Notes under the pieces: generated by a model
The model's database searches: none
What the model was told of the DNA's origin: nothing
Seen by the model: the letters and a program-made list of their open reading frames with translations, nothing else
IMG/VR virus record: IMGVR_UViG_3300044295_000323
Coordinates: 897 to 64,896 of that record
Direction: 5' to 3' (one strand)
DNA: 64,000 bases
DNA from: a virus
Lineage: Duplodnaviria; Caudoviricetes
Shown here: piece by piece, positions 2,213 to 62,460 of the stretch
How the letters are laid out: each line of letters starts with the position of its first letter
How positions within the stretch are numbered: the first letter of the stretch is position 1
Program-made: the position numbers and the translations under genes

Positions 2213-2456
2213 CGTCGGGGTTCCATCGTAAGTCGTAGGGTTGGAGTTTGCGCATACCCCACACAATAAGTGTACGGTTTTCAATCTCTACGCGCACGAA
2301 GTTCCACAGACTGTTGGTCGTCTTCCCTCCTAATCTTTCTACAACATTGTCACCGCTTCGAAGAACCGGTGGGATGTAGCCCTTGGTCAACAAGGCCACA
2401 GCACACTTGGCCTTAATCTGCTCCAGAAGTTCGGACGCCGTGGGCTCAGTATTCAT
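2202..2456 (-). CDS. small protein, A-domain-like paralog family
   Basis: N-terminal helix LLEQIKAKCAVALLTKG; SD GGAG. Confidence 0.5.
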   Translation of the reverse strand: MNTEPTASELLEQIKAKCAVALLTKGYIPPVLRSGDNVVERLGGKTTNSLWNFVRVEIENRTLIVWGMRKLQPYDLRWNPDDDD

Positions 2457-2676
2457 GATCGTCTCCCGGGAACTGGACGCCATCTGGGGATAATCTTTGG
2501 CGCCCGTAGAGCAGAACCCCACGATGTTGGTAGAAACGACTAAAGTTTCCGTCGACCAGCACACTCTTGGCATCCCAGCCGATGTACGCATGCTTAGGCA
2601 ACTCTTCTCCCATCAGCAACTTGGTGGCAAACACGGCATCGAGCTTCTTCAATACGTCCTCTTTACTCAGTGTCAT
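2446..2676 (-). CDS. small protein, A-domain-like paralog family
   Basis: SKEDVLKKLDAVFATKLLMG helix, then PKHAYIG strand and HRGVLLY; SD GAGG. Confidence 0.55.
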   Translation of the reverse strand: MTLSKEDVLKKLDAVFATKLLMGEELPKHAYIGWDAKSVLVDGNFSRFYQHRGVLLYGRQRLSPDGVQFPGDDHEY

Positions 2677-3763: not shown

Positions 3764-4139
3764 AGATGTCCTCGATGTATTCGTCAAATGAGTATGGGCA
3801 GTACATATCAAGCATGCTTTCTGCGAGGTCGGTCTCCCAGACCTTGATACCTGTGGCACCGATTAGTTGGTTCCAATTTGATGGCACCCCCACTATGTCT
3901 GGAATAGCAGAGGCCGACACGTAAAATGACGAGAAGTCGCCCGTTCGTGTCATGAACATCGGCTCTACCGTGATCGTATCGTTGCCGATCATGATCTTAA
4001 GACATTTGCCCACGAGCCCGCGTTCTTTCTTCAAGACGGCCCAGACCGCTCCGCCCACTAAGAGTCCACTAATTTTGACTCCAGTTTCCAGCGTGGCTGC
4101 GACTGCGGCCGCTTCAAGCAGTTGTTGACACTTGCCCAC
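3756..4139 (-). CDS. small protein, A-domain-like paralog family
   Basis: LLEAAAVAATLETG helix, then ISGLLVGGAVWAVLKKE; GTG start with SD AAGGA. Confidence 0.5.
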   Translation of the reverse strand: MGKCQQLLEAAAVAATLETGVKISGLLVGGAVWAVLKKERGLVGKCLKIMIGNDTITVEPMFMTRTGDFSSFYVSASAIPDIVGVPSNWNQLIGATGIKVWETDLAESMLDMYCPYSFDEYIEDICG

Positions 4140-4491
4140 GTCTTCGCTTCCTTTCTTGCTTCCGCTTGTCTCGGTTGGCCTTGACGGGCCCGCCGGCAAC
4201 GGGGCGCCTATCAAAGGGGATCACGTCTTCAATGACTCGGCGCTTCCATGTACCGTTCTCCACTAGCCGAATACCCCACTTTGGGGCCGCTGTCACAAAG
4301 TACAGCCTATACTTGTCCCCTAATTCATAGGGTCTAGCCGGAAAGTTCGGGAGGTTCAACATCTCGGCCAGTTTTAATCCGACGTCGATATCAGTTCTTC
4401 CGCTACTCCAGAACTTCAATTCAACGCCGCCGATAATCTCAGCCATGATGGCCGCCTTCAAAAACTCTAGCGCTTCCTCTGCGGTCGCCAC
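4114..4491 (-). CDS. small protein, A-domain-like paralog family with basic tail
   Basis: TAEEALEFLKAAIMAEIIGG helix; DKYRLYF...WGIRLV matches DKKLHVF...WGIRVV of 58985..59272; start could be 4545. Confidence 0.55.
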   Translation of the reverse strand: MATAEEALEFLKAAIMAEIIGGVELKFWSSGRTDIDVGLKLAEMLNLPNFPARPYELGDKYRLYFVTAAPKWGIRLVENGTWKRRVIEDVIPFDRRPVAGGPVKANRDKRKQERKRRRGQVSTTA

Positions 4492-4730: not shown

Positions 4731-5705
4731 TTATTGTCCGTTCGTTGTGGGGGCCGGTGTTGGCCCCGTTTGTGCAGTCTGCCCATAGAGATGGGGGAAG
4801 TACTTATGAATACGACGAATAGCCGACGAGCGCGAACAGTCGAGCCGCTTAGCTACAATACTTGCCAGCGCATTCTGGCTCGGCTTGCCTCCGAGCTTGA
4901 GCCGCTCAGCATCGATGATCAGCTTGTGCTGCACATCGTCCGCCTCGGGCTGGATGAACACCAGTCCCGTCTGCGGGTCCTGGAAGACCGACTCAATGGT
5001 CTGCCCTGTGGCGCGACCTTTGAACATTAACCGTTTCTGTGTGAGTTTCATCACGACGTCCATGCGGCCGGCGACATATGAGGATCCACGCCCCTGGTCC
5101 ATCATGTCGTCGTCGCCGCTCACCGTCATCATGGAGTCCTTACGACTATGACTCAGCAGCATAATGGCCGACGGCCGGCACGCGTCCACAAGGTGAGCAA
5201 TCACATTCCGCATGGTCGTCGAATCGTTTTCGTCCCCGCCGTGTACTTCACGGAGGGTGTCGATGATCGTCAACACTGGCTTGATCGCGGCGATGGATTG
5301 CTTCAACCATGTGAGCTCGGTCTGAGCCGGATTGAGGATATTAAACGGAAACTCGGGCACCTGGTACATGTCCGCAATCCACAGGTTGCTCCCGCCCCCG
5401 TTGACAAACTTGATGCGCCCGAGACGGTCTGACCATTCTTCACGGGGCGTATCGATCTGGAGGTAGGCGACGGGCCCGGGGAGTCTGATGTCATAGCCAC
5501 ACCAGTCTTCCCGGCCGTCCACGATGGCCTGCGCCATCGACAGAGCGAGAAAACTCTTACCGGTCTTTGGTTTACCGAAGACGTTGATCAAGCCACCAAC
5601 GGGAATGAGCTTGTCGATGACCCAGGGCTGGGGGGCTTTGGGTAACGCGAGGTAGGAATCTGCGGGAACGAAAAACGTGGCTGGTTCAGTGACGGGCTGG
5701 GTCAA
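4731..5705 (-). CDS. RecA-fold replicative helicase (AAA_25 / RepA-like)
   Basis: Walker A FGKPKTGKS, IIDTLR Walker B, GDENDS, LLSHSRK, GRGSS motifs. Confidence 0.8.
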   Translation of the reverse strand: MTQPVTEPATFFVPADSYLALPKAPQPWVIDKLIPVGGLINVFGKPKTGKSFLALSMAQAIVDGREDWCGYDIRLPGPVAYLQIDTPREEWSDRLGRIKFVNGGGSNLWIADMYQVPEFPFNILNPAQTELTWLKQSIAAIKPVLTIIDTLREVHGGDENDSTTMRNVIAHLVDACRPSAIMLLSHSRKDSMMTVSGDDDMMDQGRGSSYVAGRMDVVMKLTQKRLMFKGRATGQTIESVFQDPQTGLVFIQPEADDVQHKLIIDAERLKLGGKPSQNALASIVAKRLDCSRSSAIRRIHKYFPHLYGQTAQTGPTPAPTTNGQ

Positions 5706-9300: not shown

Positions 9301-9420
9301 TTACCTACCCTTCCGCTCTGGTCTCGCCATGTACGCCACAAATACCAATCCCGCCAGCACGATCACAAGCGAGCCAATATCTCGGGCGTGATGATCCAAG
9401 AAATCCCACATGCTCATCAT
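9301..9420 (-). CDS. 39-aa membrane peptide (not in ORF track)
   Basis: IGSLVIVLAGLVFVAYMA TM segment; SD AAGGAG; ATGA overlap. Confidence 0.5.
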   Translation of the reverse strand: MMSMWDFLDHHARDIGSLVIVLAGLVFVAYMARPERKGR

Positions 9421-9734
9421 GATACTTGCTCCTTGGATGCCGCCAGGGTCATGGCGGGTTCGGGCGCCGAGGCTTTCCGGGGCGCCACCTCCACATAGAC
9501 GATGTGCTTGCGGACGGCCACTTCCCCGGCCACCTGCTTGGACTTCTTCAAGACGCCGGCGAGGTTAGCGGCCGCGTACTTGGACCCCATATAGATCGGC
9601 AGGACCTGGCCCGGCTGAGCTTTCTTCAAGGCCTTAACGACCTGGTCGAGGCGCGTCTTGTGCTGGTGGGCGCGCTTGACCCGGGGGATCGACGCAATAG
9701 GCTGACCGATGGACATCTGTGCTTTACGGCTCAT
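9417..9734 (-). CDS. basic hypothetical protein, possibly DNA-binding
   Basis: Lys-rich; SD AAGGAG. Confidence 0.6.
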   Translation of the reverse strand: MSRKAQMSIGQPIASIPRVKRAHQHKTRLDQVVKALKKAQPGQVLPIYMGSKYAAANLAGVLKKSKQVAGEVAVRKHIVYVEVAPRKASAPEPAMTLAASKEQVS

Positions 9735-14961: not shown

Positions 14962-16257
14962 CTACTTCTCCTCGTGGATCGAGAAGGGGACGTGCTCGCC
15001 GTAGCCGGGCACGACCTGGGACGAGACGCACCACACCACGGGCACATCCACCGGACTGCTCGTGCTGAAGTCCGTGTAGCCATCCGTCAGGCAGACGATC
15101 ACCTCGACGTCTTGCAGCTTCTTCGCAATCCACCGGAAGCCCGCTTCCATATCGGTGCCACCGCCGGAGTAGAACTCCAGCTTCACCTCGTCGCCCTGCG
15201 CCGGCACGAACTCCAGGTGCTTCTGGACCTGGGTGTCCACATAGAGGACATGCACCTTGCTGGGGTTGCACTGCTCAATGATGCGTGCCATGTGGCCGGC
15301 GTAGTGCCGCAGTTCGATCTCGGAGATCGAGCCCGACACGTCGATCTGCAGGCAGATCTCGCCCATCATGGGCGTCTTGCCCACCCACGGCAGGTAGTGC
15401 TCGGTGTAGCGACGGTTGCGCTTGGCCCACGTGGACTCTGACCGGGCGAACGAGGTCATGTAGCGTTCGAGCTTCTCGTACCACGGCACCTTAGACTCGA
15501 TCAGTTCGGCCGCCCACTTGCCAATGGCACCGGGCAGCTTGCCCTGCATCTTGGCCGTCTGGGTGGCCTGCGCGATAGCGACCTTCATCTCGGCCTCCTG
15601 CTGCTTGGCCTGATCGGCCGTCATCGGGCCGCCCTTCTGCACCAGGTCACGGCCCACCCCGCCGATGGCCTGCCCGTGTCCGGGGCACTGGCAGGGTTGC
15701 CCACCCTTGCCGTGCTTGTGCTGCTTGGACTTCGACTTGCCCTGGCCCTGCTTGGACTGCTGTTGGCCCTGGCCCTGACCATCTTGCCCGCCATCGCCGT
15801 CCTGGCCTCCGCCCTGCTGCTGGTCGCCCACTTCGCCGCCGCACTGGGCGCACTTCACGGGCGGCAGTTCGTTGTAGATCTGGTCGGTCGTCTTGTCCTT
15901 GCTGCCCGGCATGTCGATGCCGCCCTCGATCATCTTGCCGATGCCGTCCTGCTTGAGCAAGTCGTTGATGAACGCATCGCCGGCGATGTTCCACTTCAGC
16001 TGGTGCCGATGGCCGAGACGTCCGGCGTGCTGGCACACCACGTGCATGACCTCATGGGCGAGGAGGAAGATCACTTCTTCCACGTCCATGTTCTCGATGA
16101 ACTTGGGGTTGTAGTAGATCTGTCCCCACTGATCGACGGCCGCCGTCGGGCACCACGGTTCGGTGACGGCGACGAGGGGACGTCTCAGCAAGATCGAGGC
16201 GAAGAACGGGTGCTGAAACACCATGTGCGCCTTAGCGCGTTCGAGAACTGTTGCCAT
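14962..16257 (-). CDS. metallopeptidase + VWA domain protein (DUF2201-like)
   Basis: HEVMH zincin motif, Gly/Gln linker, MIDAS DVSGS, GGGTD, LTDGY. Confidence 0.85.
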   Translation of the reverse strand: MATVLERAKAHMVFQHPFFASILLRRPLVAVTEPWCPTAAVDQWGQIYYNPKFIENMDVEEVIFLLAHEVMHVVCQHAGRLGHRHQLKWNIAGDAFINDLLKQDGIGKMIEGGIDMPGSKDKTTDQIYNELPPVKCAQCGGEVGDQQQGGGQDGDGGQDGQGQGQQQSKQGQGKSKSKQHKHGKGGQPCQCPGHGQAIGGVGRDLVQKGGPMTADQAKQQEAEMKVAIAQATQTAKMQGKLPGAIGKWAAELIESKVPWYEKLERYMTSFARSESTWAKRNRRYTEHYLPWVGKTPMMGEICLQIDVSGSISEIELRHYAGHMARIIEQCNPSKVHVLYVDTQVQKHLEFVPAQGDEVKLEFYSGGGTDMEAGFRWIAKKLQDVEVIVCLTDGYTDFSTSSPVDVPVVWCVSSQVVPGYGEHVPFSIHEEK

Positions 16258-16311
16258 TGGATTACGCTCCTTCCTGAACACTGACGTTGTTGTTATTCAC
16301 GTTTCCCACTG

Positions 16312-29445: not shown

Positions 29446-29729
29446 TGGCAGCGAAGAAAGCTGATCTCAGCGAAGAACTCGTCCTGCTCGTTAAAGAAAT
29501 GATGAAGCAGCAGGCCGAGGTGTTGAAAGTCGCTATGGAAACCCAGAAGTCCCAGGCCGAAGTCCTCAACAAGTGGATTGGGATGTTCACGCCCCAGGCC
29601 CAGCCCTATAAGTCCACCACCGAAGACGAACGTGCCAAGCTCCGCGAGGAGATGGACGCGGCCCAGTGGGAGCCTGTAACGGCCCCGATGTTCCCCGATA
29701 CTGACGGAGACCTGTTCAATGGAATCTAG
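29445..29729 (+). CDS. hypothetical protein
   Basis: between TerL and portal with overlapping junctions. Confidence 0.6.
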   Translation: MAAKKADLSEELVLLVKEMMKQQAEVLKVAMETQKSQAEVLNKWIGMFTPQAQPYKSTTEDERAKLREEMDAAQWEPVTAPMFPDTDGDLFNGI

Positions 29730-31881
29730 TTTCGCCGCCCCTGTAGACACGAGCGGCGTCCCCACCCCAGGCGCCACCGCAGGGCCCGTCCCAGATCAGC
29801 AGATCGCCACAGCTGGGCGCGTCGAGTCTGACGCTCAGCTCGTTAGCGAGATCTACAATAAATATGATCTCCGGCGTCAGATGCGTCGTCCCTATGAGGT
29901 GCAGTGGTATCTGAACGCGTCTGCCCTCCGAGGCTTCCCTGACGTCAGGTGGAACGCCGAGCTCAACCGCCTGGAGATCAAGCGAGAGCCGGCCCATCGG
30001 AAGCGCCATCGCATCAACCACATCAAGCCCAAGTATGTGGCGCGAGTCGCCAAGTATACGAAGATTCCACCGAATCCCACGGTGGTGCCCGCCACGTCGG
30101 ACCGCGAAGACATCTTTAACGCCCGCGCAAGCCAGAAGGTCCTTGAATACTACACCCGGAAGGGCCAGTTGCGTCAGAAGTTTATGTCGGCCATGCAGTG
30201 GGTGCCGCTGACAGGCAAGGCGTTCTGGTGGCTCCATTATGACGACAACCAGATGAGCTTCTCCCCGGTGGAGCTCGATGGTGAGCGTCGGCCCATTATG
30301 GGCGAAGTGGAGTGTAGTTTCGGGAGCGCGTTCGAATTTCTGCCGGCCGACCCTGGAATTGAGCTCCTGGCGGACCAGCCCGAGATTCATCGCGTCCGTC
30401 TGGAGCGCTGTTCAGATATTGAGAAGCGATATAACCAGCTTCCAGGAACGATCGCCAAGGAGTCGAACAACAACGACTTGTTCTTCTACCAGCGCCAAAT
30501 CGCCGACCTTGGCACTCGTCAGCAGGGAATCGCCTCGCGTTCGGCCCAGTCCATTGCCGAGAATGACTCCACGAACGACGGTTATGCGCTCGTCATCGAG
30601 ACGTTCACCAAGCCGTGCGCCAAGTATCCCTTTGGCCGCTACGTGGTGGTGGCAGGGAAGAAGCTGCTGAAGAAGCAGGACTCGATCCCGGGCAACTTCC
30701 AGGCGGTCCACAAGAACCCCTATCCGTGCGTCGAATTCTCAGACGACGCGGCGCCGGGACAGTTCTGGCCGGACGCCTTCATCGAGCGCCTGGTGGGACT
30801 GGCCAGCGAATATAACGAGTATCGGTCGAAGATGGCGGAGAACATGGCCATGCACTTCTTCCCCAAACTCGTGGTACCGAAGCAGCTCAATCTCGCGGCC
30901 GACGCCTACACGTCCGAAGCGGGCGAGCGTCTGGATGTGAACTGGATCCCTGGCATTCAGATGCCATCATTCCTGCAGCCCGCCAGCGTCATCGGTGACG
31001 CCTGGAACGTCCTCAATACGATCCGTAAGGAGATGGACGACATCACGCTCATCTACCCGACGGCCGTGGGCGGCGCGGGTGGAACGAACAGTGGCTTCCA
31101 GGCCAATTTGCTCCAGGAGGCGGCGGACCAGGTCCATGGGCCCTCTATCGCCCGGAACGCCATGGCGTTAGAAGAAGCCTATATCAAGATCCGTCACTTG
31201 ATGAAGATCAGCTACGACATCCCGAGGTTGGTGTCGATCGCGGGCAAGAATAACATTCCCGAGGTCTACGAATTTAGCTCTAGCCAGATCGACGAGCAGG
31301 CCGACGTTCGTATCGAGCCCGATACGATGATGCCCATGCTGAGGTCTGCCCGTGTGGACATGATCCGGGGCATGTACCAGGATGGCCTCTTTGGCGATCC
31401 GCAGGATCCCGCCACGAGAAAGCGCGTCCAGGACATGATCCGTATGGGCTATAGCGACTTCGAGATCGATCGCGATCAGCGTGACCAGGAGCAGGCCCAG
31501 TTGGAAAACATCCAAATGGGGCGCGGTGAAGAGTTGCCGAAGCCGCAGCCGTGGGAAGACCACAAGATCCACTGGGAGCTCCACACCGACTTGTTCAAGT
31601 CGCCCGAGGCCCAGCAGTGGTCCGACCAGCAGCGTCTCTCCGGCGCCTGGCATGCGATTGTGCATCTTTCATATATCAGCATTCCGGACGCGTTGCAGAT
31701 GGCCGGCGAGTTTGGCCTGGCCATGAAGCTCCAAGAGCTGCTCTCACTGCGCCAGGCGGGCATGCCCGTTCCGCCAGCGCCCCAACCCCAGCCCATGGCC
31801 CCACCCCAGGCCCCCGGGGGCGCAGGAGTCCCCCCTCCAGGAGCTCCTCCCCCCGGTCCTCCCATTGGGCCCCAAATGTAA
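29719..31881 (+). CDS. portal protein
   Basis: 720 aa after TerL; INHIKPKYVARVAK, FWPDAFIERL, Pro-rich tail, WEDHKIH typical of P22-like environmental portals. Confidence 0.8.
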   Translation: MESSFAAPVDTSGVPTPGATAGPVPDQQIATAGRVESDAQLVSEIYNKYDLRRQMRRPYEVQWYLNASALRGFPDVRWNAELNRLEIKREPAHRKRHRINHIKPKYVARVAKYTKIPPNPTVVPATSDREDIFNARASQKVLEYYTRKGQLRQKFMSAMQWVPLTGKAFWWLHYDDNQMSFSPVELDGERRPIMGEVECSFGSAFEFLPADPGIELLADQPEIHRVRLERCSDIEKRYNQLPGTIAKESNNNDLFFYQRQIADLGTRQQGIASRSAQSIAENDSTNDGYALVIETFTKPCAKYPFGRYVVVAGKKLLKKQDSIPGNFQAVHKNPYPCVEFSDDAAPGQFWPDAFIERLVGLASEYNEYRSKMAENMAMHFFPKLVVPKQLNLAADAYTSEAGERLDVNWIPGIQMPSFLQPASVIGDAWNVLNTIRKEMDDITLIYPTAVGGAGGTNSGFQANLLQEAADQVHGPSIARNAMALEEAYIKIRHLMKISYDIPRLVSIAGKNNIPEVYEFSSSQIDEQADVRIEPDTMMPMLRSARVDMIRGMYQDGLFGDPQDPATRKRVQDMIRMGYSDFEIDRDQRDQEQAQLENIQMGRGEELPKPQPWEDHKIHWELHTDLFKSPEAQQWSDQQRLSGAWHAIVHLSYISIPDALQMAGEFGLAMKLQELLSLRQAGMPVPPAPQPQPMAPPQAPGGAGVPPPGAPPPGPPIGPQM

Positions 31882-32078: not shown

Positions 32079-33119
32079 ATGTCAGTGACAAACGTCGTTA
32101 CGGCCCCTGATTCGATTCAGCCAGCGACCATCGACTTTCAGGCCCTCCGGGCAAAAGCGATGGAGCATCCAGCGGGAAATGAAGTGGAAGCGGTTGCATC
32201 ACCCGAACCCACCCCGGCGCCCGCTGTTAGTGATCCGGTAGCCCAGAGCACTCCCCCGGAGCAGGCTCCTCAGGCAGTAGACGCGGTAGCCCAGGCCAAA
32301 ATCCTGGAACTCAGCGACACGGACCAGATTCGAGTCAAAGTTGATGGCAAGGAAGAGATCGTCAGCGCGAAGGACTATCGCGATGGCATCTCACGAGAAG
32401 CCGTTTTCACCAAGCGTATGCAGACGCTGGCCGAGCAGCGGCGTGAAGCCGAAGCTCAGTTAGCCGCGCAGTACGCACAAGTGCAGCGAGAAGCAGAAGC
32501 GATCGCGTTGGCCAAACAGCAGTTTGCCGCGCAGTTCGACGCTCTGCGAACTCCAGCGTCTCAGTCCGTAGCTCCGCAGACAGCGCCCCGTGCGCTGGAC
32601 CCGCAGGAGCTGGCCACTCTGGGTGATGTAAATTCCACGATCGAACAGAAGCTCGAAGCGATTCGCAACGAGCAGAAGTCGCAGCAAGAGGCGTTCGTAC
32701 GAGCGCTTGGCGAGGCGAGCCAGCAGGTTCAGACGCAGGCCCAGCTGCAGCGAGACACGATTGATTTTACGAATCACCTGCAATCGGTGATGAGTAAGCC
32801 TGAGTACCAGGTGTTGAATCGCGTGAGCCCGTTTGCAGAGGAGATTGTTCGGCAGAAGGTCGCCGCGATGGAGCCCCGCTCCATGGCAGAAGCGAAGGAC
32901 TTCGCCGACACGTATGTCCGGGGCTGGTATCAGGACGTGACGGCTGCGATGGTGGAATCGGCTAAACGGCAAGAGGTCGCAAAGGCCCAGGCCAGACTAG
33001 AACCCCCACAGGGTTCGGCACCCCCGCCAGTTGCGCAATTCAAGCCCGGCGATGCGTTCCGCAAGGACGGAAAGTTCGATTGGGCGGCTCTTCGAGCCCG
33101 CGCTGAGGGGATGCTCTAG
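32079..33119 (+). CDS. capsid scaffolding protein
   Basis: RVKVDGKEEIVS...FTKRMQTLAEQRR scaffold pattern, coiled coil, precedes MCP. Confidence 0.75.
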   Translation: MSVTNVVTAPDSIQPATIDFQALRAKAMEHPAGNEVEAVASPEPTPAPAVSDPVAQSTPPEQAPQAVDAVAQAKILELSDTDQIRVKVDGKEEIVSAKDYRDGISREAVFTKRMQTLAEQRREAEAQLAAQYAQVQREAEAIALAKQQFAAQFDALRTPASQSVAPQTAPRALDPQELATLGDVNSTIEQKLEAIRNEQKSQQEAFVRALGEASQQVQTQAQLQRDTIDFTNHLQSVMSKPEYQVLNRVSPFAEEIVRQKVAAMEPRSMAEAKDFADTYVRGWYQDVTAAMVESAKRQEVAKAQARLEPPQGSAPPPVAQFKPGDAFRKDGKFDWAALRARAEGML

Positions 33120-33179: not shown

Positions 33180-34415
33180 ATGGCATTCGATTACACGGCA
33201 GCGACTCCTATTCTGAAGGAAGTCTACCTGCCGGCGTTGCAGGAACTCCTGAACAACGCCACTCCGCTCCTGTCCGCGATTGAGAAGGATATTACCCCGG
33301 TTGAGGGTGGTAACTTCGTCATCGCGATCCACCGTACCCGCAACAACGCGGCCGCCATTGGCCGTGCGGAAGGTGGCACGCTCCCGACCGCTGGAACCCA
33401 GGGCTATGCCCGGGCGATCGTGCCGGTGAAGCAGCTCTACTCGCGCATCAACGTGTCGGGTAAGGCAATCGCCAGCACGCGTTCCAACAAGGGTGCCTTC
33501 CTGAAGGCGCTGGAGTCGGAAATGCAGTACGTCATGACCGACACCAAGCGCGGTCTGAACCGTCAGCTCAACGGCGACGGTACGGGCGCTTTGGCGTACT
33601 GGACCGGTGCGGACAACACCACGCCGGCGACCGTGGACGACAACCTGGGCAACGGCACCACGCACCTCCCGGTGGGTAGTGTCACGTGCGACTTGATCGA
33701 TACCGACAACTCCACGAAGAACGGCGACTCGATCGTCATTACGCGTGGCGCGGTGGGTACGTCGACCACGTCGGTCAGCTGGTCGGGCTCGGTGTCGAGC
33801 TCGGGCGACGGTGACTATCTCGTCCTGGAAGATACCCTGGGCTACGAGATGACCGGTATCCAGGCTGTCATCAACGACGCGGACCCGGCGCTTCTGAGCG
33901 GCGGTCTCCACGGCCTGACCGTGGCGTCCTATCCTGATTGGAAGGCCGTCGTGATGGGTTCGGATTCTTCGCAGGAAGACCTGACCTTCGTCAAGATCCA
34001 GCAGCTCATCTCGCGCATCGTCAACGAATCGGCGTGCGACGAGAGCGACCTGAAGATGTTCCACTGCCACCCGGCGGTGCGCGACACCTACGTCAAGCTG
34101 TGCCAGGACGAGCGCGTTTTCTATAACGTCATGAAGCTCGATGGCGGCTGGGAAGCCGTGACCTACAACGGCAAGCCGATCGTGGCGGACAACCAGTGCC
34201 GTCGCAACGCCCTGTTCCTGATCAATCCGTCGAGCCTCTCGCTGATGCAGATGGCCCCGCTGGACTTCATGGACAAGGACGGCTCGGTGTTCTACCGCAT
34301 GTCGGGCGGTGACGTCGACGCGTACGGCGCCACGGCGTTCGTGTACCAGGAACTTGGTTGCAAGGTTCGTAATCAGAACGGCGTGATCAAGGGAATTAGG
34401 GAGGTCTGGTCATAG
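33180..34415 (+). CDS. major capsid protein (HK97 fold)
   Basis: 411 aa; ILKEVY, AEGGTLP, NRQLNGDGTG, GIQAVI, YNGKPIVAD; strongly biased codon usage. Confidence 0.85.
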   Translation: MAFDYTAATPILKEVYLPALQELLNNATPLLSAIEKDITPVEGGNFVIAIHRTRNNAAAIGRAEGGTLPTAGTQGYARAIVPVKQLYSRINVSGKAIASTRSNKGAFLKALESEMQYVMTDTKRGLNRQLNGDGTGALAYWTGADNTTPATVDDNLGNGTTHLPVGSVTCDLIDTDNSTKNGDSIVITRGAVGTSTTSVSWSGSVSSSGDGDYLVLEDTLGYEMTGIQAVINDADPALLSGGLHGLTVASYPDWKAVVMGSDSSQEDLTFVKIQQLISRIVNESACDESDLKMFHCHPAVRDTYVKLCQDERVFYNVMKLDGGWEAVTYNGKPIVADNQCRRNALFLINPSSLSLMQMAPLDFMDKDGSVFYRMSGGDVDAYGATAFVYQELGCKVRNQNGVIKGIREVWS

Positions 34416-34460: not shown

Positions 34461-35051
34461 GTGAAGAAAACATCAAATCTTTCTCCAGATCAACTCATTG
34501 AGCTTCGGGCCAAGCGTGCAGCCTACATGCGTAGGTACAACGCAAGGCCCGAGGCCAAACTCCGAAATAAAGAACGCAATCTACGATACAAGTCACAAAG
34601 GCGGGAAAAGTTAGCAGCACAAGAAAGTGCCCGCTATTATGCGAACCACGAAAAGGCTCTAGAGTACAGACGCCAATATCGACATTCCCTAAGTCCAGAA
34701 GAAAAAGCCAGGCAACAACAGATCCGAAAAGAGTGGGCCCAGCAAAATCCTGATCGAGTCGCAGCGTCTTACCAACGACGTAAACACACCGATGCGTATC
34801 GGTATAAGGCCACAGAACAAAAGGGCAAACGTAAAGCTCGGGTTTCTGGAGCGCGTATCGAACGAATCAATTGGCGTCAGGTGTGGTCCACGTTTGACGG
34901 CACGTGCAATCTTTGTAAGAAAGAACTCCGCATCGGAGTTCACACCTACCACTTCGATCACATTGTAGCGTTGAGCCGAGGTGGCGCACACAGCACAGAC
35001 AATCTTCAGATCGTCCACGCAAAGTGCAACCTTTCCAAAAATCGCTACTAA
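34461..35051 (+). CDS. HNH homing endonuclease
   Basis: CNLC...FDHIVALSRGGAHSTDNLQIVHAKCN; AT-richer than flanks. Confidence 0.85.
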   Translation: MKKTSNLSPDQLIELRAKRAAYMRRYNARPEAKLRNKERNLRYKSQRREKLAAQESARYYANHEKALEYRRQYRHSLSPEEKARQQQIRKEWAQQNPDRVAASYQRRKHTDAYRYKATEQKGKRKARVSGARIERINWRQVWSTFDGTCNLCKKELRIGVHTYHFDHIVALSRGGAHSTDNLQIVHAKCNLSKNRY

Positions 35052-55975: not shown

Positions 55976-56132
55976 CGTCTGGGTCCGGTTCTAGCAGCTC
56001 CCGCTGCCCTTCTTTAAACGCTTCCCGATAGGTAATCTCATACAGCTCCTTCACTTGATCCTGGATCTTGTGAGGGAGCTTTCTGTTTTTGAGCTCCGTG
56101 AGGAGGGCTTCCAGCAAGAGGGGTGCATTCAT
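55965..56132 (-). CDS. 55-aa hypothetical protein (not in ORF track)
   Basis: MNAPLLLEALLTELKNRKLP...; TAATG overlap with the polymerase stop. Confidence 0.55.
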   Translation of the reverse strand: MNAPLLLEALLTELKNRKLPHKIQDQVKELYEITYREAFKEGQRELLEPDPDDEL

Positions 56133-58702
56133 TACACTTCAACCTTCCGTACCGTCCTCATGCCCCCCGGATTGCCATCTGGAAAGGACCGCTTACTCGG
56201 CTCCGTATCCATCTCGCAATCCGCCCAGTTGTAGCCACGATCAACTTCACAGCCGATCCGTAGACCCCCTAACTCTACCACAGGTCGCGTCAGGGTTTCA
56301 ATCAGGAATTCTGTCGCCTCATCTGCCATAGCTTCTGGAACCTCAAGGAGATAGCCGTCATGAACGGTGACGTTCGCCGGCATGTAGTCTGCCCACTTGG
56401 ATGTCCCAAGGATGAGCAAGGTGTCGCGGCAGAACGAGCCCGCGCAATTCTGTGGAATAAAGGCTAGGGCCCGTTTGGAGTCCTGTCCGAGTTTGAGCTT
56501 CGGCTTCCCACTGTCGTCATAGAGAATGTTGCCGGCGTCATCGCGCTTGAACGTGTACACGTCGTGGAAGCGGTGACGATAACCCCAGGGACTCTGAAGT
56601 ACCCCTTCGCGCTTGGCTTGTTCGCGGGTACGTTCTTGCCACGCCTCCAGGGCGGGCATGACCGCAAAGATCTTCTTCTGAATGGCCTTTGCGGAGCCGA
56701 TCGTGGGGAACAACTCCGGGTTAGTCATGTGCATCAGATAGGGATCTCCACCGTAGAGCAGGAGATATACGGCCGTCTTGAACTGGTTATAGAGCCCCTT
56801 GTGTTCGTCTTTGGTGCGCTTGATGTTCTCGTCCGTAAACGCCCAGCCTAGTTCCTGACAACACAGATAGGCGTGGATCGACTTCTTAGCTACCGCCGTG
56901 AAGTTGGCGTCCCCAATCAACTCGCCTGTCACCACCGCTTCAATCGACGTGGAGTCAGCTTGGACGAAGACGTGGCCAGGACGAGCCACAATTTGGCGGC
57001 GCGCCTTCTTTGCCCACTTGTTGGACTCGCGTTTGCCTACGTTCTGCAAATTGTAGTTACGGGATGCGAGGCGCCACGTGGACGGCGCATTCACATACTG
57101 GGTATGAATTAGTCCAAGATCATCTGGCACATACATATAGGTGCTCAGGGTCTTGGCCACCTGGCTGTATTTCAGGACTTCCCCATAAATCGGATGCTGG
57201 CTTCCAAATTGCTTAGCAAGTCGTGCGAGATGATTCTTGTCCATCGTTGCCGACTTCGTCTTGTGGTTCCAGCCGAGCGGGTGCTTGAAGTACTTCGCGT
57301 ACGTTTGGAGCTGATCCGACGAGCCGAGGTTGAATTCCTGGAGGACATCATAGACTTCTTTCTCGCCCCTGATCACCTGGGTGACGGCGCCGTGACACGG
57401 ATTCTTCTTGCCGCCCTTCAAGTGCTCGGACTTGTTGGGCATGGGCTGCTGACACTTCGAGCAGATCTTGATGTCTGCCGGCACCATCACGCGGTCAAAC
57501 TCGCCCTCAGTGGGCATCGTCGACACACGCTCCCGTGGCTGGAGCTCACGCGGCACCATCTTCGCTGCCTCACTACGCAGCTTGGCCTTCTCGCGCTCCA
57601 TCTCGTCCCGCAGCAGCGTCTGATAAGGGATGTCGATACGGTTGCCCCGAAGACCCGCCTTGCGCAGGATCGGCATCAGTTGAGTGACGTGACGCTCGAA
57701 CAGCGGCCACTGGCCGTAATGCTCAAGATCCCGCCGAATCCCCAGGAAGTTTTGCAACGCCACGTCCGCGTCCATCGCCGCGTATCGGGCGAAGTTGACA
57801 TCATTCAAGTGTTTCCACGGCATGACGTTGGTGTAGAACGATGAGACCCATTCGAGGCCCTTGGGCAGGTCGGACTCCAGGATGTGCCAAGCGTCCTGCG
57901 CGTCCCAAATGGTTCCTCGAACTGGGAATCCCTCTGCTTCTAGACGAGGGACGTCGAAGGCAAGACAGTTCCATCCCACCTTTGGGTGGTCGCTGGCCAG
58001 GAGTGCCCGGATGCCGTCCAGGAATTCACGATTCCATGGTACAGAGGCTCCAGTGTGTGGCTGATTGGAGAACGCGATACGAAGCATCGCCCCTTCTGGG
58101 ACGCCTTCCTGATCATCGTCCTCAGCTCGGAGGCCCTTGGGCGTGTACTGGGTTTCGATGTCGAACGAGATGGGGTCTTTGGCGTCGAGGACTTTTTGGA
58201 CATAGTCATTCCATTCCTTGGGAGTCTTGGGGTCAAGCAGGTAGTTGTCACGATAGCGTGTGACGACGCCGCCGTTCTTCACGGCGTGTTGAATGTCACG
58301 GACCCAGACAGACTGGAACCGCGCTGGTTTGTTCAAGAGCTGGGAGCCCGAACCCTGGCCGTGACGAGCCACCAGGTCGTGGATACGCATCGTGGAGATC
58401 ACCGTAGCGGGCGACCCGGGCCAGCTCATCACAGCTTGAGTGCGGCCGCGCCACCGGAAGAGATCGCTATTTTGGGTCACCAACGTCATGGCCATCTCGC
58501 CCATGGTCACGATTGTGTGAACGTCGTTGGCCACGGGGCGCACCCCGGGCTGCAGGCGCCACGACTCCTGGGGAATCGTCACGATGGTCTCGGGGTTCTC
58601 AATGCCGGCCCGCTGCCACATGCGCGTCCACATGGCGCCCTTGGTGTCGTCTTGAGGGCACACGACGACAATGCCCGGATCCCACAGCATTAGCGATGGC
58701 AC
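56132..58702 (-). CDS. polA: family A DNA polymerase with degenerate N-terminal UDG-like domain and 3'-5' exonuclease
   Basis: Exo I FDIET, Exo II WNCLAFD, Exo III YAAMDAD; TWRLAS..NLQN; motif A ADSTSIE, motif B FKTAVYLLLYG, motif C VHDG. Confidence 0.9.
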   Translation of the reverse strand: MPSLMLWDPGIVVVCPQDDTKGAMWTRMWQRAGIENPETIVTIPQESWRLQPGVRPVANDVHTIVTMGEMAMTLVTQNSDLFRWRGRTQAVMSWPGSPATVISTMRIHDLVARHGQGSGSQLLNKPARFQSVWVRDIQHAVKNGGVVTRYRDNYLLDPKTPKEWNDYVQKVLDAKDPISFDIETQYTPKGLRAEDDDQEGVPEGAMLRIAFSNQPHTGASVPWNREFLDGIRALLASDHPKVGWNCLAFDVPRLEAEGFPVRGTIWDAQDAWHILESDLPKGLEWVSSFYTNVMPWKHLNDVNFARYAAMDADVALQNFLGIRRDLEHYGQWPLFERHVTQLMPILRKAGLRGNRIDIPYQTLLRDEMEREKAKLRSEAAKMVPRELQPRERVSTMPTEGEFDRVMVPADIKICSKCQQPMPNKSEHLKGGKKNPCHGAVTQVIRGEKEVYDVLQEFNLGSSDQLQTYAKYFKHPLGWNHKTKSATMDKNHLARLAKQFGSQHPIYGEVLKYSQVAKTLSTYMYVPDDLGLIHTQYVNAPSTWRLASRNYNLQNVGKRESNKWAKKARRQIVARPGHVFVQADSTSIEAVVTGELIGDANFTAVAKKSIHAYLCCQELGWAFTDENIKRTKDEHKGLYNQFKTAVYLLLYGGDPYLMHMTNPELFPTIGSAKAIQKKIFAVMPALEAWQERTREQAKREGVLQSPWGYRHRFHDVYTFKRDDAGNILYDDSGKPKLKLGQDSKRALAFIPQNCAGSFCRDTLLILGTSKWADYMPANVTVHDGYLLEVPEAMADEATEFLIETLTRPVVELGGLRIGCEVDRGYNWADCEMDTEPSKRSFPDGNPGGMRTVRKVEV

Positions 58703-58983
58703 TCCTTTGGAAAGCGTTGATAGTGATAGTGATCGGCCCCGGACTCTTCCCGCGTCACGACTAGGAAGTCGTAATCACTAGGTTCCACAATATAAAGTGG
58801 GATGCCATGGAAGTTGCGGACGTAGGGAGCCACATCTTTGTGGATAAAGAGGCGCTCCCAGTGTGGAAGCAAGTGCAGGCTGGACTTCAGGGCGATCGAC
58901 TTACTCAGGTCGATCCTCAGGGGGTCACCCCCTTGGAGCTTGAATGCTGTAATTTCGCTCAGCAAGTAGTCGTGATAGGTCAC
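58690..58983 (-). CDS. small protein, A-domain-like paralog family
   Basis: YLLSEITAFKLQGGDPLRIDL...NFHGIPLYIV; start may be 59019. Confidence 0.55.
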   Translation of the reverse strand: MTYHDYLLSEITAFKLQGGDPLRIDLSKSIALKSSLHLLPHWERLFIHKDVAPYVRNFHGIPLYIVEPSDYDFLVVTREESGADHYHYQRFPKECHR

Positions 58984-58984
58984 A

Positions 58985-59272
58985 TTAGCTAGGATGCTCC
59001 AACTCGTCTGGGGTTTCACTCATGTCGTCGAGGCCGATCACGACACGGATGCCCCAGTCGTGGCAGTCGGGCTCCTCAAACACATGGAGCTTCTTGTCCG
59101 GCGTGACCTCGAACATGATGTTCGGAATCTCGATGCCACGAGACCTAACACCCATCTCGTTCAGTAAGATTCGATAGGCTTCCTTGCCAATGTCGACGTA
59201 GTTGATGGGATCGGTGCCCCGAGTGATGGTCGCGGCCGCAACCGCCGTCTTGATCTGTTCGCTAATGGTCAT
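58985..59272 (-). CDS. small protein, A-domain-like paralog family
   Basis: SEQIKTAVAAATITRG..INYVDIGKEAYRILLNE; SD AAGGAG. Confidence 0.6.
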   Translation of the reverse strand: MTISEQIKTAVAAATITRGTDPINYVDIGKEAYRILLNEMGVRSRGIEIPNIMFEVTPDKKLHVFEEPDCHDWGIRVVIGLDDMSETPDELEHPS

Positions 59273-59631
59273 TCGTGGGACTCCTTTGATACACGCTTCC
59301 AGAGTATGCTGCTTTCGTTAAGAGACTTCTTCACCGCCGGAAGATACACGTCCTTAAGGACAGATCGCATCGCAGCATTGTAGTCGATCTCTCGTAGAAC
59401 AAATTCAATAGATGCCTCGTCCTCTAGACTTGGCGCTACTGGGATGCCTTTCCACATCACGAGTTCGTTCTCAATGCAACCTCCGAGTGGAACCTCTTCG
59501 TTGAGCATCCGCGTGTACGCCTGGTACATCTGTGGCGACATCTGGATGGTGAACGGCTTCTCGTTGCCATGAATGAGAATGGCGGCCACGTGGGCCGCCT
59601 TCATCTGGGTCTCTAGTTCGTCTCGTGTCAT
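59269..59631 (-). CDS. A-domain-like protein with C-terminal copy of the capsid N-arm
   Basis: IQMSPQMYQAY...WKGIPV; DYNAAMRSVLKDVYLPAVKKSLN similar to MCP DYTAATPILKEVYLPALQELLN. Confidence 0.65.
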   Translation of the reverse strand: MTRDELETQMKAAHVAAILIHGNEKPFTIQMSPQMYQAYTRMLNEEVPLGGCIENELVMWKGIPVAPSLEDEASIEFVLREIDYNAAMRSVLKDVYLPAVKKSLNESSILWKRVSKESHE

Positions 59632-60071
59632 GCGATCACCAGGGAGATCTCGGTCTTTTCCGTTGACCGCTTCGCCGGATTATATTCGGTGAGGCGGATG
59701 ACCCACCAGTTGCCCCACGGCCAGCGACTAAAGTGGACTTGCGGGAACTCGGAGCGTAGCCAGTTTTGCAGCAGCTCATGACACGCCCAATGAATCTCTA
59801 CGATGCGCTTCGAGCCTGTCAGCCGGTCGCTCACGCGCATCGCCAAGACCTGGTCCTTCAACGCGGCCTTGAATCCCGGGATGTTGATACCCAACTTGAG
59901 GGCTTCCTTGGACGCATCCCCCAGGAGTGACTCCTGGGGGATGATCTCGCGAATCTGCCCCTCCTTGCCTTCCTTGATCAAGCGTTCGCGTTCGGTCTCG
60001 TCCCACTCCAGATCTTCTTCAATGTCTAGGTCAGTGCGTTCCCAGATTCGAACTTCGGGTTCCTTGCCCAT
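59628..60071 (-). CDS. hypothetical protein
   Basis: SD GAGG; ATGA overlap. Confidence 0.6.
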   Translation of the reverse strand: MGKEPEVRIWERTDLDIEEDLEWDETERERLIKEGKEGQIREIIPQESLLGDASKEALKLGINIPGFKAALKDQVLAMRVSDRLTGSKRIVEIHWACHELLQNWLRSEFPQVHFSRWPWGNWWVIRLTEYNPAKRSTEKTEISLVIA

Positions 60072-60079
60072 AGCGCCTC

Positions 60080-61975
60080 TTAGATCTCGCAGAGTCCCCC
60101 GACGCAGGCGAACTCCGAATTAACGGTCGTAATGTCTTGCGTCTCCTGAATGAGATGCAAGTCCAGGGCCGTTGGTAACAGCGCCAGCCGGCGCTCATAT
60201 TCGTCCTTGGTAATCTCTTCGTAGGGCGCCAAGGGATAGATATTGGTATCCTTCGGCAGGAAGCTCAGACCACCAATGGCGTCCCATGACATCCGCAGGA
60301 AGGACGTCACCCCCACCCATTCATCTGGATGGACGTAGATGGTGCAGGAGGGGTTGTGTTCTGTCCAGCATTTCTTCCACATCAGCCAATAGGAGAGCTG
60401 GTCCAGGGCCGACAGTTGATCCCGCACGATGGCTCCATCGGGACTCTTCACCGGGAGCTCCACCACCCACTGTTGGGCCTCCTCTAGTGTGCCTTGGGCG
60501 GTCTCGGGAAATACCGGCAACCCACGGTCTCGAAGATGCAGGCCAATAGGGGAGCGTGCAGCAACACGCAATCGGCGAACGTAATACGGAGCGTACCGAG
60601 CGTGAATACCTGAGCTAGTATCCAGGAATTGAGCACTGTTGCCACTAGGCTTATTGCAAGTAACGGCCGCGCTTGCCGCCACGCCAAGCAAAGCTGCCCA
60701 GCCCTTATTGACTTCGACGGCCACGTCTTTGAGGTGCCCCAAAAGACGAGGTGTAGTATGCGGGTCGCACAAGAGGGGACAATCGCAAGCCCCAGTAATA
60801 TCAACACCGAGCAAGCGTTCCTCGTCACAGTTGGCCTTCCACTCAGGGCTCAAATAGCTGAAGTTAGTCAACGTACTTTGGATCGTCCCCAGAATCGCAG
60901 CCAGGTTGACCTTGTGTTCGAGCGTCTGGGTCGTGTCATCAGGGCGCGCCACTGCGATCGATAGGTTGCAGAACTGACGCGGGCGCAGGATGATCTCCCC
61001 ACAGGGGTTAGTGCCAAAGTCGTCCCGCACGGCCCGTCGTTGAGGGACGGCGCCGTCACGCCGAAACACACCGGGCTCTCCCGTGCCGTTGCCGGCCAGT
61101 TGGGCCATCCACGAAAGGAGATCGCTGTCCTTGACGGGGCCCGTGGCGACCATGCTGTTGTTGGCCATGGCCAGCTCTGGCATCACTTCCCAGAATTTGC
61201 CGTTCTTGGCCGACAGCATCTCCTGATCGTCGGCGTCAAACAGGGCTATTTCGGCCGCTCGTCGTACGCCCCCAACCTGGACAATAGACCCACACATTGT
61301 CGCCAGTCGATGGACGTCAAGCGGGCGCAACGCTTGACCCCGTCGAGCCCGGATGATATCCCAACTTTTATCAAGAAGATCACGGAGGGGCTTAGGCCCT
61401 GAAGCTCGACCACCCTTGGTGTGGAGCCATTCTCCCTCAGGGCGAATCTGCGAATAGTCGTACTGCCGCTTGACCCCATCAAGCGCATCTACGAGCCGCT
61501 GCTTAAACGCGTCAGCCCACCCTTCTGTCGAATCATCAATGACATAGATGTCGTCCGTATGGGAGTCAGTGTCCTTTACTTTGGGCCACTTCTGGATGTG
61601 GACCTTCTCAACCGAGTACCCCACACCAGTGCCTTGCATGAGGATGTACAGCAACTCCGCAAGGTCGCGGGGAGCTTCGAGTACGGTATACGCGCAGTTG
61701 TACGCCCCAACGTTACAGCGGTCGAGCGAAGGGCCCGCCATTTGGACAATCCGCATCGACGGCAATACGTCCCGACGAAGAATCGCATCGTGAAGGTTGG
61801 ACCAGACTTGGCCTGGAATTTTCTTGGCGCCGGGCGCTTTTTGGAGCCACTGAGTGACGCGGGACGTGACTTCGGCCCACGTTTCACGCCGGCTCTTTTC
61901 CGGGATCCACCGCGCATACTTGTCATAAAGGGTTAGCTCCGTAATGAACTCTGCACCTTTGCAATCTCGCTTCAC
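60080..61975 (-). CDS. nrdJ: class II (adenosylcobalamin) ribonucleotide reductase
   Basis: LPSMR, YNCAY, GTGVG, VRRAAEI, GTNPCGEI, KPSGN, C-terminal CVGGLCEI; no beta subunit gene seen. Confidence 0.9.
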   Translation of the reverse strand: MKRDCKGAEFITELTLYDKYARWIPEKSRRETWAEVTSRVTQWLQKAPGAKKIPGQVWSNLHDAILRRDVLPSMRIVQMAGPSLDRCNVGAYNCAYTVLEAPRDLAELLYILMQGTGVGYSVEKVHIQKWPKVKDTDSHTDDIYVIDDSTEGWADAFKQRLVDALDGVKRQYDYSQIRPEGEWLHTKGGRASGPKPLRDLLDKSWDIIRARRGQALRPLDVHRLATMCGSIVQVGGVRRAAEIALFDADDQEMLSAKNGKFWEVMPELAMANNSMVATGPVKDSDLLSWMAQLAGNGTGEPGVFRRDGAVPQRRAVRDDFGTNPCGEIILRPRQFCNLSIAVARPDDTTQTLEHKVNLAAILGTIQSTLTNFSYLSPEWKANCDEERLLGVDITGACDCPLLCDPHTTPRLLGHLKDVAVEVNKGWAALLGVAASAAVTCNKPSGNSAQFLDTSSGIHARYAPYYVRRLRVAARSPIGLHLRDRGLPVFPETAQGTLEEAQQWVVELPVKSPDGAIVRDQLSALDQLSYWLMWKKCWTEHNPSCTIYVHPDEWVGVTSFLRMSWDAIGGLSFLPKDTNIYPLAPYEEITKDEYERRLALLPTALDLHLIQETQDITTVNSEFACVGGLCEI

Positions 61976-62406
61976 TGTCGCACCTTCCCATATCGTCCAC
62001 GGCCCCGACGTTCTCTGTCATCTGCGTTATCGGCGGGGGTTCCTAGTCGCAGATGCGCTGGATTCACACAGCTTGGGTTATCACATGAATGCAAGACATG
62101 CCATTCATTCGGCTCTTGCACGAACAACGTATAAGACACTCTATGCGCTGTTAGACACTGACCTTGAAAAGAAAAATACCCGTACCCTGCCGGATGTTTA
62201 GACGCGTTCCAATTCCAACACATCGAGGTCTTATCAACTTTCTTCAAGAACCGAACGCGTACTTTTTCGAGTGCTTCCGCTGTGTATGGTTTCGCATTCG
62301 CCTTTTGAAAGCGCCGTGTCCACTTCTTGCGATGTGTTCTAACTTTGTCTGGATTCGCCTTGCGCCAACGAGCCGTTCTAGCCCGAGCTGCTTCCTCACG
62401 AGTCAT
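61972..62406 (-). CDS. HNH homing endonuclease
   Basis: CWNW...GYG...AHRVSY...HSCDNPSCVNPAHLRLGT..DN. Confidence 0.85.
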   Translation of the reverse strand: MTREEAARARTARWRKANPDKVRTHRKKWTRRFQKANAKPYTAEALEKVRVRFLKKVDKTSMCWNWNASKHPAGYGYFSFQGQCLTAHRVSYTLFVQEPNEWHVLHSCDNPSCVNPAHLRLGTPADNADDRERRGRGRYGKVRQ

Positions 62407-62419
62407 GCCTATATGATGC

Positions 62420-62460
62420 AAAAGAAGAGGACCAGGTTACGGCGAAGTAACCTGGTCCTC
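62420..62460 (-). terminator. intrinsic terminator
   Basis: 14-bp stem GAGGACCAGGTTAC/GTAACCTGGTCCTC then TTCTTTT. Confidence 0.8.

Follow-up and report, generated by a model that had tools for sequence, protein, structure and literature searches.

We analysed a 64,000-nucleotide window of a tailed-virus genome (bases 897-64896 of the 64,896-bp IMG/VR virus record IMGVR_UViG_3300044295_000323, which has direct terminal repeats and is rated complete), in whose replication gene block lie eight small genes, here named a1 to a3, b1, b2 and c1 to c3. The reading that we favour, with a probability of about 0.65, is that the eight encode small soluble proteins, each little more than a contiguous segment of the A-domain of HK97-fold capsid proteins (helix, strand, helix and three strands), and that this domain was cut loose, multiplied and diversified within the replication block. 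One of them, c1, in addition carries an old, diverged copy of the N-terminal arm (N-arm) of the phage's own major capsid protein (MCP). That all eight share the fold modelled for c2, and that this fold descends from a capsid gene, is what we infer from the evidence laid out below.

The firmest new result is the N-arm copy, for which sequence comparisons demonstrate homology to the MCP N-arm in the tail of c1 and in two tails encoded on related contigs. BLASTP aligns c1 83-117 with MCP 4-37 at 15/35 identical residues (E 3e-6), a match that the original prediction, made from the letters of the window, had missed, and in tblastn over the phage's own genome the MCP N-arm is the only second match of c1 (E 4.1e-4). 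It is because of this resemblance that the best PHROG match of c1 is the MCP family phrog_14242, at positions 7-37 (E 0.14). The N-arm motif is conserved across 33 non-redundant MCPs of 26-86% identity, and a hidden Markov model (HMM) of their first 45 residues, searched over 3130 six-frame open reading frames (ORFs) from the window and 20 related loci, retrieved the MCP, the c1 tail (E 1.7e-6), a frame on the contig L013 (E 1.5e-7) and an ORF of 58 amino acids (aa) on the contig L012 (E 2.7e-6), with all remaining ORFs at E>=1. The three tails retain 7-8 of the 12 N-arm columns that are at least 60% conserved in the 33 MCPs, the c1 tail 8/12. At the DNA level, the c1 tail and the 5' end of the MCP gene are identical at 57/102 positions and at 13/34 third codon positions. 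With third positions close to random and 15/35 residues nonetheless retained, the copy is old and maintained at the protein level, and by the same comparison the c1 tail is not a recent duplication of the MCP 5' end. AlphaFold2 (AF2) predicts the tail to be helical (residues 84-119), with a predicted local distance difference test score (pLDDT) of 81-91 in the last three blocks. The order of the pieces in c1 is unlike that in the MCP: the A-domain-like part comes first and the arm last, at the C-terminus of a 120-aa protein. Among 22 further IMG/VR records with related MCPs (5 records at least 90% complete), 19 matched the N-arm query, all within the MCP gene, and the whole genomes of the relatives G001 and G005 hold no extra N-arm (best E 1.7 and 0.18, respectively). 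One further candidate, the L013 ORF 9065-9340, has a tail that looked N-arm-like by eye; it gave no match to the N-arm HMM at E<=20 and was dropped.

The setting of the arm differs between the three contigs. The window has it joined in frame to c1; L012 encodes it as a free ORF of 58 aa (1366-1542), which comprises hardly anything beyond the N-arm-like peptide and belongs to a compact gene string immediately following the DNA polymerase gene (pol). On L013, the reading frame of a c1-like domain (9337-9612) closes with CTT TGA C, and the arm is then encoded in the +1 frame (site and arm at 9598-9730), with a G-rich stretch and a 3-base spacer preceding CUU UGA C. Contigs from two runs and two studies span this site without an indel, one of them having TAA in place of TGA; because these independent contigs bridge the site, the stop and the frame change are real and not an assembly error. 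This layout is that of the programmed +1 frameshift in Escherichia coli prfB. By this analogy, a programmed +1 frameshift possibly attaches the arm on L013, the alternative being an internal start that would make a tail-only ORF.

The original prediction had likened the whole set to a free-standing A-domain. Structure prediction followed by fold searches bears this out for c2, whose model matches HK97-fold capsid proteins, leaves the strand region of c1 at low confidence and, for the family as a whole, makes the A-domain reading plausible. For c2, an alignment of 14 family sequences and no capsid sequence yielded an AF2 model (pLDDT 76.2, predicted template-modelling (TM) score 0.69) that is a single domain with a helix at 3-18, a strand at 23-28, a helix at 30-40 and strands at 46-50, 61-66 and 75-79. 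When this model was compared with 48,161 solved chains, HK97-fold capsid or encapsulin entries occupied 46 of the 50 best rows, all 46 alignments covering an uninterrupted segment towards the C-terminal end of the chain (HK97 252-332), and the same search also matched the archaeal A-domain-only protein PF0899. As modelled, the helix-strand-helix and small sheet of c2 superpose on solved capsid A-domains. Foldseek of the c2 model against the PDB returned nothing under E 0.5, with T7 3j7v at rank 10 and Kp9 7y23 at rank 28. In BFVD, the c2 model is closest to an uncharacterised 107-aa protein from an uncultured phage (E 4.7e-3, TM-score 0.61), followed by 76-128-aa uncharacterised phage proteins mixed with MCPs. 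For c1, an ESM Atlas model (pLDDT 0.64) matches over residues 1-82 a cluster labelled major capsid protein (TM-score 0.52) and a 142-aa cluster in which 39% of the members carry SU10_MCP (TM-score 0.50), predicted similarities that we regard as a lead only. With 76-127 aa each, none of the eight has the features of a whole MCP (a P-domain with spine helix, an E-loop, an N-arm and about 250 aa or more). As an observation in its own right, the small look-alikes in BFVD (TM-score 0.44-0.61) come from the Bacillus phages Pascal, CP-51 and SP-15, from Haloferax tailed virus 1 and from uncultured phages, and such A-domain-like proteins, to judge from predicted folds, are possibly a widespread and unnamed class of phage protein.

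Several results weigh against the A-domain reading. A usable model was obtained for c2 alone. For c1, the AF2 model from the family alignment is confident only for three helices (3-21, 33-46 and 84-119), residues 49-81 having pLDDT <50 and no assigned strands, and fold searches with it are dominated by the long C-terminal helix. The Atlas model of c2 is poor (pLDDT 0.47) and retrieves glyoxalase-like and other folds, with no capsids. In profile comparisons by hhalign, a 15-sequence family alignment reached probabilities of just 0.12% and 0.3% (E 0.46 and 0.2) against a narrow and a broad MCP alignment, respectively; PHROGs and Pfam yielded no capsid match for the domain of the eight and nothing below E 0.01; and the family profile, run against PDB sequences, found aldehyde dehydrogenase alone (E 1). 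Searching Pfam with the 15 family sequences at E<=10 produced three unrelated single matches and no capsid family.

The direct sequence parallel between c1 and the MCP drawn in the original prediction is not significant. Its MCP string sits at MCP aa 294-335, within the stretch 270-352 that we take to be the A-domain from the general topology of HK97-fold proteins. The comparisons did not confirm the parallel as exceeding chance: BLASTP of c1 against the MCP does not report it, hhalign is non-significant, and an HMM of MCP 262-356 over the 3130 ORFs gives c1 an E of 1.3, with one L013 member at E 0.015. Both hhalign runs place the helix-strand-helix of the family on MCP 270-306, where the original prediction had placed it, an agreement that is not independent of the reader's eye because both choose the best local similarity. 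Judged by sequence methods, the link of the family domain to capsid proteins is at most possible. An origin of c1 from the junction of a tandem MCP duplication (c1 49-63 against MCP 392-406) was also considered and dropped (BLASTP E 6.0).

The eight ORFs are all present on the minus strand, and every string quoted for them in the original prediction is exact. Neighbouring members overlap or abut, start to stop. Their G+C contents at the three codon positions (about 0.55-0.60, 0.33-0.45 and 0.59-0.75) match the pattern of the certain genes of the phage, namely, those for polymerase, ribonucleotide reductase (RNR), MCP, portal, nuclease and helicase (0.57-0.62, 0.41-0.45 and 0.66-0.83); the eight are real and in their coding frames. 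Seven of the products have isoelectric points (pI) of 4.5-6.4, and b2 is the only basic member (pI 10.05). The most likely start of b1, GTG 4139, makes it overlap the final 26 bases of b2 (4114-4139), whose product ends in a strongly basic tail.

Whether the eight form one family was assessed in two ways. In a leave-one-out analysis, the 938 six-frame ORFs of the window were searched with an HMM covering the 38 N-terminal columns of the alignment: c2 (E 1.5e-4), a1 (1.2e-3) and a2 (4.3e-3) each came up as the top non-training match, c1 (E 0.09) and b2 (0.22) ranked second behind one spurious ORF, and c3, a3 and b1 fell outside the best 12. In the second analysis, single-sequence hhalign scored every member both against its seven fellows and against a control set of 36 further small proteins from the window. 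Six members, c1, c2, a1, a2, a3 and b1, scored higher with their fellows than with the controls (area under the curve (AUC) 0.78-0.92, p 0.0003-0.012); for c3 (AUC 0.66, p 0.10) and b2 (AUC 0.64, p 0.12) the difference was not significant, which counts against a family of eight. Pairwise signals are faint, with hhalign probabilities of at most 8% for every pair of the eight and a best BLASTP match of E 0.006, and jackhmmer started from each of the eight over the 3130 ORFs joined no members, linking only c1 to the L013 tail frame. The C-terminal strand motif of c2 (59-78) is aligned by hhalign with b2 58-77, and the best score of c3 is to the single member found in relatives of the L003 type. 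Thus, the layout ascribed to all eight in the original prediction stands for six of them, by the hhalign scores and, for c2, a1 and a2, by the leave-one-out analysis as well; in the all-against-all comparison these six cluster above the 36 controls, c3 and b2 not significantly so. On these sequence comparisons, we treat six of the eight as a family and c3 and b2 as probable members.

Relatives of the phage were collected by a polymerase-based search, which yielded 4 IMG/VR and 17 metagenome loci; phages of this group occur at freshwater and estuary sites. The closest, the metagenome contig L013, has a pol 68% and an MCP 86% identical to those of the window and carries at least five family members at the same two positions as the window, one following the nuclease gene and the other lying between RNR and pol. 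Relatives of the L003 type (L003, L007, L008, L009 and L014) have one member each, between RNR and pol. In G001, whose MCP and pol are 82% and 53% identical to those of the window, ThyX lies between RNR and pol, and the complete genomes of G001 and G005, searched throughout, yielded no family member. Copy number therefore ranges from eight in the window through at least five in L013 and one in the L003 type to none found in G001 and G005. The c2 protein is 27-37% identical to its nearest relatives, and among 1.84 billion representative proteins it matched itself and one relative outside these loci, at 36% identity. For c1, a word index of 5.8 billion proteins returned 6 candidates, none at E<=0.01, and peptide patterns gave 13 matches in IMG/VR, none of them a relative. 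The family is lineage-restricted, variable in number and evolving several-fold faster than the polymerase or the MCP.

The nearest described kind is the Family 4 "A-domain encapsulins" (PF08967/DUF1884; PDB 2PK8, Pyrococcus furiosus PF0899), which are A-domain-only proteins of about 100 aa. PMC8346489 describes them from Pyrococcus, Thermococcus and two genera of thermophilic Bacteroidetes, where their genes follow an enzyme gene and their function is speculative. By its one model, c2 shares the A-domain-only fold and the length of about 100 aa with 2PK8, and the phage genes also lie downstream of enzyme genes, a placement that is analogous only. The phage proteins fail the sequence match to the archaeal family, 0/15 family sequences matching DUF1884 (PF08967) at E<=10. 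They also differ in belonging to a phage rather than to hyperthermophilic archaea or thermophilic Bacteroidetes; in number, with eight diverged copies in one genome as against one or two; in their neighbours, which are helicase, nuclease, RNR and DNA polymerase genes, whereas Family 4 genes form two-gene operons after hydrogenase, OsmC, GAPDH or DeoC (PMC8346489); and in their fast divergence and the N-arm copy on one of them.

Compared with the A-domains of HK97-fold MCPs (HK97 gp5 1OHG, SU10, T4 gp24, P22 and others), the phage proteins are without P-domain, E-loop, spine helix or significant sequence similarity, and their genes stand in the replication block and not in the head block. The c1 tail is like the N-arm helix of the T7/SU10 type in 8/12 of the most conserved columns and in its predicted helix, and unlike it in position, at the C-terminus of a non-capsid 120-aa protein, and in net basic charge. 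The best matches of the c2 model, a list filled by capsid proteins, also include a single family of another kind, the small domain of RNase E (E. coli residues 417-508), which is part of a large cellular RNase, unlike the phage proteins; it is not known to be linked to phage genes. The SaPI1 protein CpmB offers a parallel of another sort, as a short helix copied from a head-assembly partner onto a small protein, which in CpmB serves competition between mobile elements (PMC5644958). CpmB mimics the scaffold and binds the capsid protein (same source), whereas c1 resembles the capsid arm; no satellite is involved in the phage case as far as seen. The literature searched, whose coverage mostly excluded subscription journals, contained no account of phage-encoded free A-domains or of mimics of capsid parts.

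What the proteins might do for the phage is a more tentative matter. The putative role that we favour, though we hold it to be possible rather than probable, is that the products are soluble stand-ins for parts of the capsid protein that occupy proteins recognising the MCP. Because the genes run in the same direction as those for helicase, nuclease, RNR and polymerase and are interspersed among them, joint expression is probable. Having neither P-domain nor E-loop, the products could not build a shell. They would instead occupy capsid-recognising factors, candidates being host defence proteins that sense the capsid protein and, in the case of the N-arm copy, any protein that docks on the N-arm helix, and the host response might thereby be blunted or head assembly by a co-infecting relative or satellite disturbed. 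In 80alpha, the C-terminal helix of the scaffolding protein packs on the capsid N-arm helix, and a satellite protein competes there (PMC5644958); capsid proteins have also been reported as triggers of several defence systems (PMC13728456). Genes that diverge this fast and vary in copy number suit an arms race more than housekeeping, and these features, together with the N-arm copy, make the putative role as decoy or assembly antagonist, already voiced in the original prediction, more plausible.

Some features of the arm speak against this role. The c1 tail is net basic and the true N-arm acidic, so that the same binding partner is not required. The tails are less conserved than the N-arm, unlike what would be expected of proteins binding an invariant phage partner: the true MCP N-arms are almost identical between the window and L013, and the two tails share about 12/35 residues (hand count). 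The basic charge and the fast divergence of the tail thus argue against simple competition for such a partner. A complex prediction for the MCP, residues 200-346 of a candidate scaffold and c1 scored 0.00; its controls were not run, and it has no bearing on binding. In its boldest form, which strikes us as unlikely, the proposal would be that a phage lineage split its own capsid protein into separate early genes, comprising diversifying free A-domains and a free or fused N-arm (in one relative possibly attached by +1 frameshifting), and that these mimics of unassembled capsid protein antagonise host sensors or poison the head assembly of competitors.

A different account, which we rate as tenable without being probable, is that of fold re-use, in which the domain is a compact and evolvable scaffold for early accessory proteins, such as host take-over or anti-defence binders with unrelated targets, and the c1 tail is a relic or a generic oligomerisation helix. 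This would suit a domain with no detectable sequence similarity to capsid proteins, the extreme divergence of the paralogues (11-35% identical to c1 and 18-37% to c2), the acidity of seven of the eight (pI 4.5-6.4), the variable copy number across relatives and the many 76-128-aa uncharacterised proteins of unrelated phages with a similar predicted fold. It accords less well with the c1 tail, which keeps conserved N-arm columns after long divergence (third positions near random, 15/35 residues kept), and with the recurrence of the arm in three contigs and three gene arrangements; these two observations point to selection on an N-arm-like property rather than to a relic. Unlikely, in our estimation, is that there is neither a single family nor an A-domain, the helix-Gly-strand-helix start being a common alpha/beta pattern and the c2 model an AlphaFold guess; the scores of six members against the controls and the capsid matches of the c2 model, given above, are what it would have to explain.

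We think it improbable that the products are partners of enzymes, as has been suggested for Family 4, and bind, stabilise or organise the adjoining replication enzymes. The clusters do lie directly downstream of enzyme genes (helicase followed by b2 and b1; nuclease by a3, a2 and a1; RNR by a 147-aa gene, c1, c2 and c3), members stand just after nuclease or RNR genes in the window, L013 and L003, and an archaeal A-domain gene is located downstream of its enzyme, a GAPDH/A-domain complex having been reported (PMC8346489). Yet relatives that share these enzymes carry a single member at most, G001 having ThyX instead and no member found in its genome; divergence in the family (27-37% identity) far outpaces that of the enzymes (68% for pol); and no sequence of the 15 matches DUF1884. 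Equally improbable is a role as regulators of the phage's own head assembly, in which c1 and the tail-only ORFs of relatives would bind scaffold or MCP through the N-arm copy and time or limit procapsid nucleation or enter the procapsid: the tail is homologous to the N-arm, whose helix is a scaffold contact in 80alpha (PMC5644958), and a candidate scaffold gene (346 aa, Q/A/E-rich) lies between portal and MCP, so called by position and composition only; but just one of the eight has the tail, its charge differs from that of the N-arm, and complete relatives with MCPs 82% and 60% identical manage with no extra N-arm copy, which is thus dispensable for assembly.

Free-standing HK97 A-domains have so far been described only as the cellular Family 4 encapsulins of hyperthermophiles (PMC8346489). 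If the A-domain reading is right, the domain would also have been cut loose and re-used within viruses themselves, which might represent a viral source of the cellular Family 4. The N-arm copy is direct sequence evidence that pieces of capsid genes were captured by these small genes, and it offers a handle on the practical and long-standing question of what recognises unassembled capsid protein during infection, be it scaffold, chaperones or capsid-triggered defence systems; a natural soluble mimic of the N-arm or A-domain would be a ready-made probe and a candidate inhibitor. Should the decoy role prove true, it would define a "trigger-mimic" class of counter-defence absent from the literature searched, and the look-alikes in other phages would make that class widespread.

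The window (G+C 58%, zero N) has its head and tail genes on the plus strand, from about 27.8 to 54 kb, and its replication genes on the minus strand, where they form a single block when read across the terminal repeat (Table 1). The block runs from the helicase/primase-like gene through b2, b1, the 398-aa gene, a3, a2 and a1 to a 334-aa ATPase-like gene, a 235-aa gene, further genes and an HNH endonuclease gene, and then to RNR, the 147-aa gene, c1, c2, c3 and the DNA polymerase gene. The same circular gene order is found in G001. From RNR to beyond pol, the genes form one co-directional string with no strong terminator-like site inside, bracketed by strong sites of this kind at 62460-62427 and 55239-55216. 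As to expression, a listing of 18 runs included none with RNA. Across 50,697 phage records, the MCP has its best matches, at 26-29% identity, in Arthrobacter, Microbacterium and Cellulosimicrobium phages; judged by these matches, there is no close cultured relative in that set, and blastn of 56000-62000 against the same records gave zero matches.

Table 1. Features of the window discussed in the text, with the most likely starts used for the coordinates of the small genes
Feature	Position	Strand	Remarks
c1	59269-59631	-	120 aa; family domain at aa 1-82 and C-terminal helix resembling the MCP N-arm
c1 tail, aa 83-117	59281-59385	-	diverged copy of the phage's own MCP N-arm
c2	58985-59272	-	95 aa; sole member with a usable model; predicted alpha-beta-alpha-beta-beta-beta, HK97 A-domain-like
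c3	58690-58983	-	97 aa (109 aa from the alternative GTG start 59019); marginal member
a1	1916-2212	-	98 aa; family member; leave-one-out E 1.2e-3; AUC 0.80, p 0.007
a2	2202-2456	-	84 aa; family member; leave-one-out E 4.3e-3; AUC 0.78, p 0.010
a3	2446-2676	-	76 aa; family member; AUC 0.92, p 0.0003; missed by leave-one-out
b1	3756-4139	-	127 aa; family member with C-terminal extension; AUC 0.78, p 0.012; missed by leave-one-out
b2	4114-4491	-	125 aa; marginal by statistics; C-terminal strand motif in common with c2; basic tail
MCP	33180-34415	+	phrog_14242 E 1.4e-61; Pfam SU10_MCP E 8.9e-6
MCP N-arm, aa 4-37	33189-33290	+	original that the c1 tail resembles
MCP aa 270-352	33987-34235	+	stretch compared with c1 in the original prediction; presumed A-domain
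Portal	29719-31881	+	
Q/A/E-rich 346-aa gene	32079-33119	+	between portal and MCP genes; candidate scaffold from position and composition only; no family hit
Helicase/primase-like gene	4731-5705	-	
398-aa gene	2663-3859	-	called nuclease from motifs; no library hit
RNR	60080-61975	-	631 aa
DNA polymerase (pol)	56132-58702	-	

The 147-aa gene (59628-60071, minus strand), directly upstream of c1, has a clearly conserved counterpart in L013 (8667-9068). Its product combines an acidic N-terminus with a Trp-rich C-terminal motif, and its C-terminal half looks by eye like the family, with helix, strand, helix and strand, a likeness that comes with no HMM or hhalign tie.

Three HNH endonuclease genes are present, at 34461-35051 (plus strand), 61972-62421 (minus) and 14962-16281 (minus), with PHROG matches of E 2.3e-12 to 2.4e-84; one follows the MCP gene directly and another immediately precedes the RNR gene. 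In L013 (5252-8694), the RNR ORF encodes 988 aa, compared with 631 aa in the window, has an HNH endonuclease gene after it and probably contains an intein or other insertion. In the 70-kb complete relative G005 (loci L096 and L106), the 5' end of the MCP gene is split (G005:C1:57058-57885): the matches to N-arm query residues 1-17 and 13-50 are separated by about 660 bp and the first of them is followed by a stop, a pattern that suggests an insertion, such as an intron or homing element, in the capsid gene.

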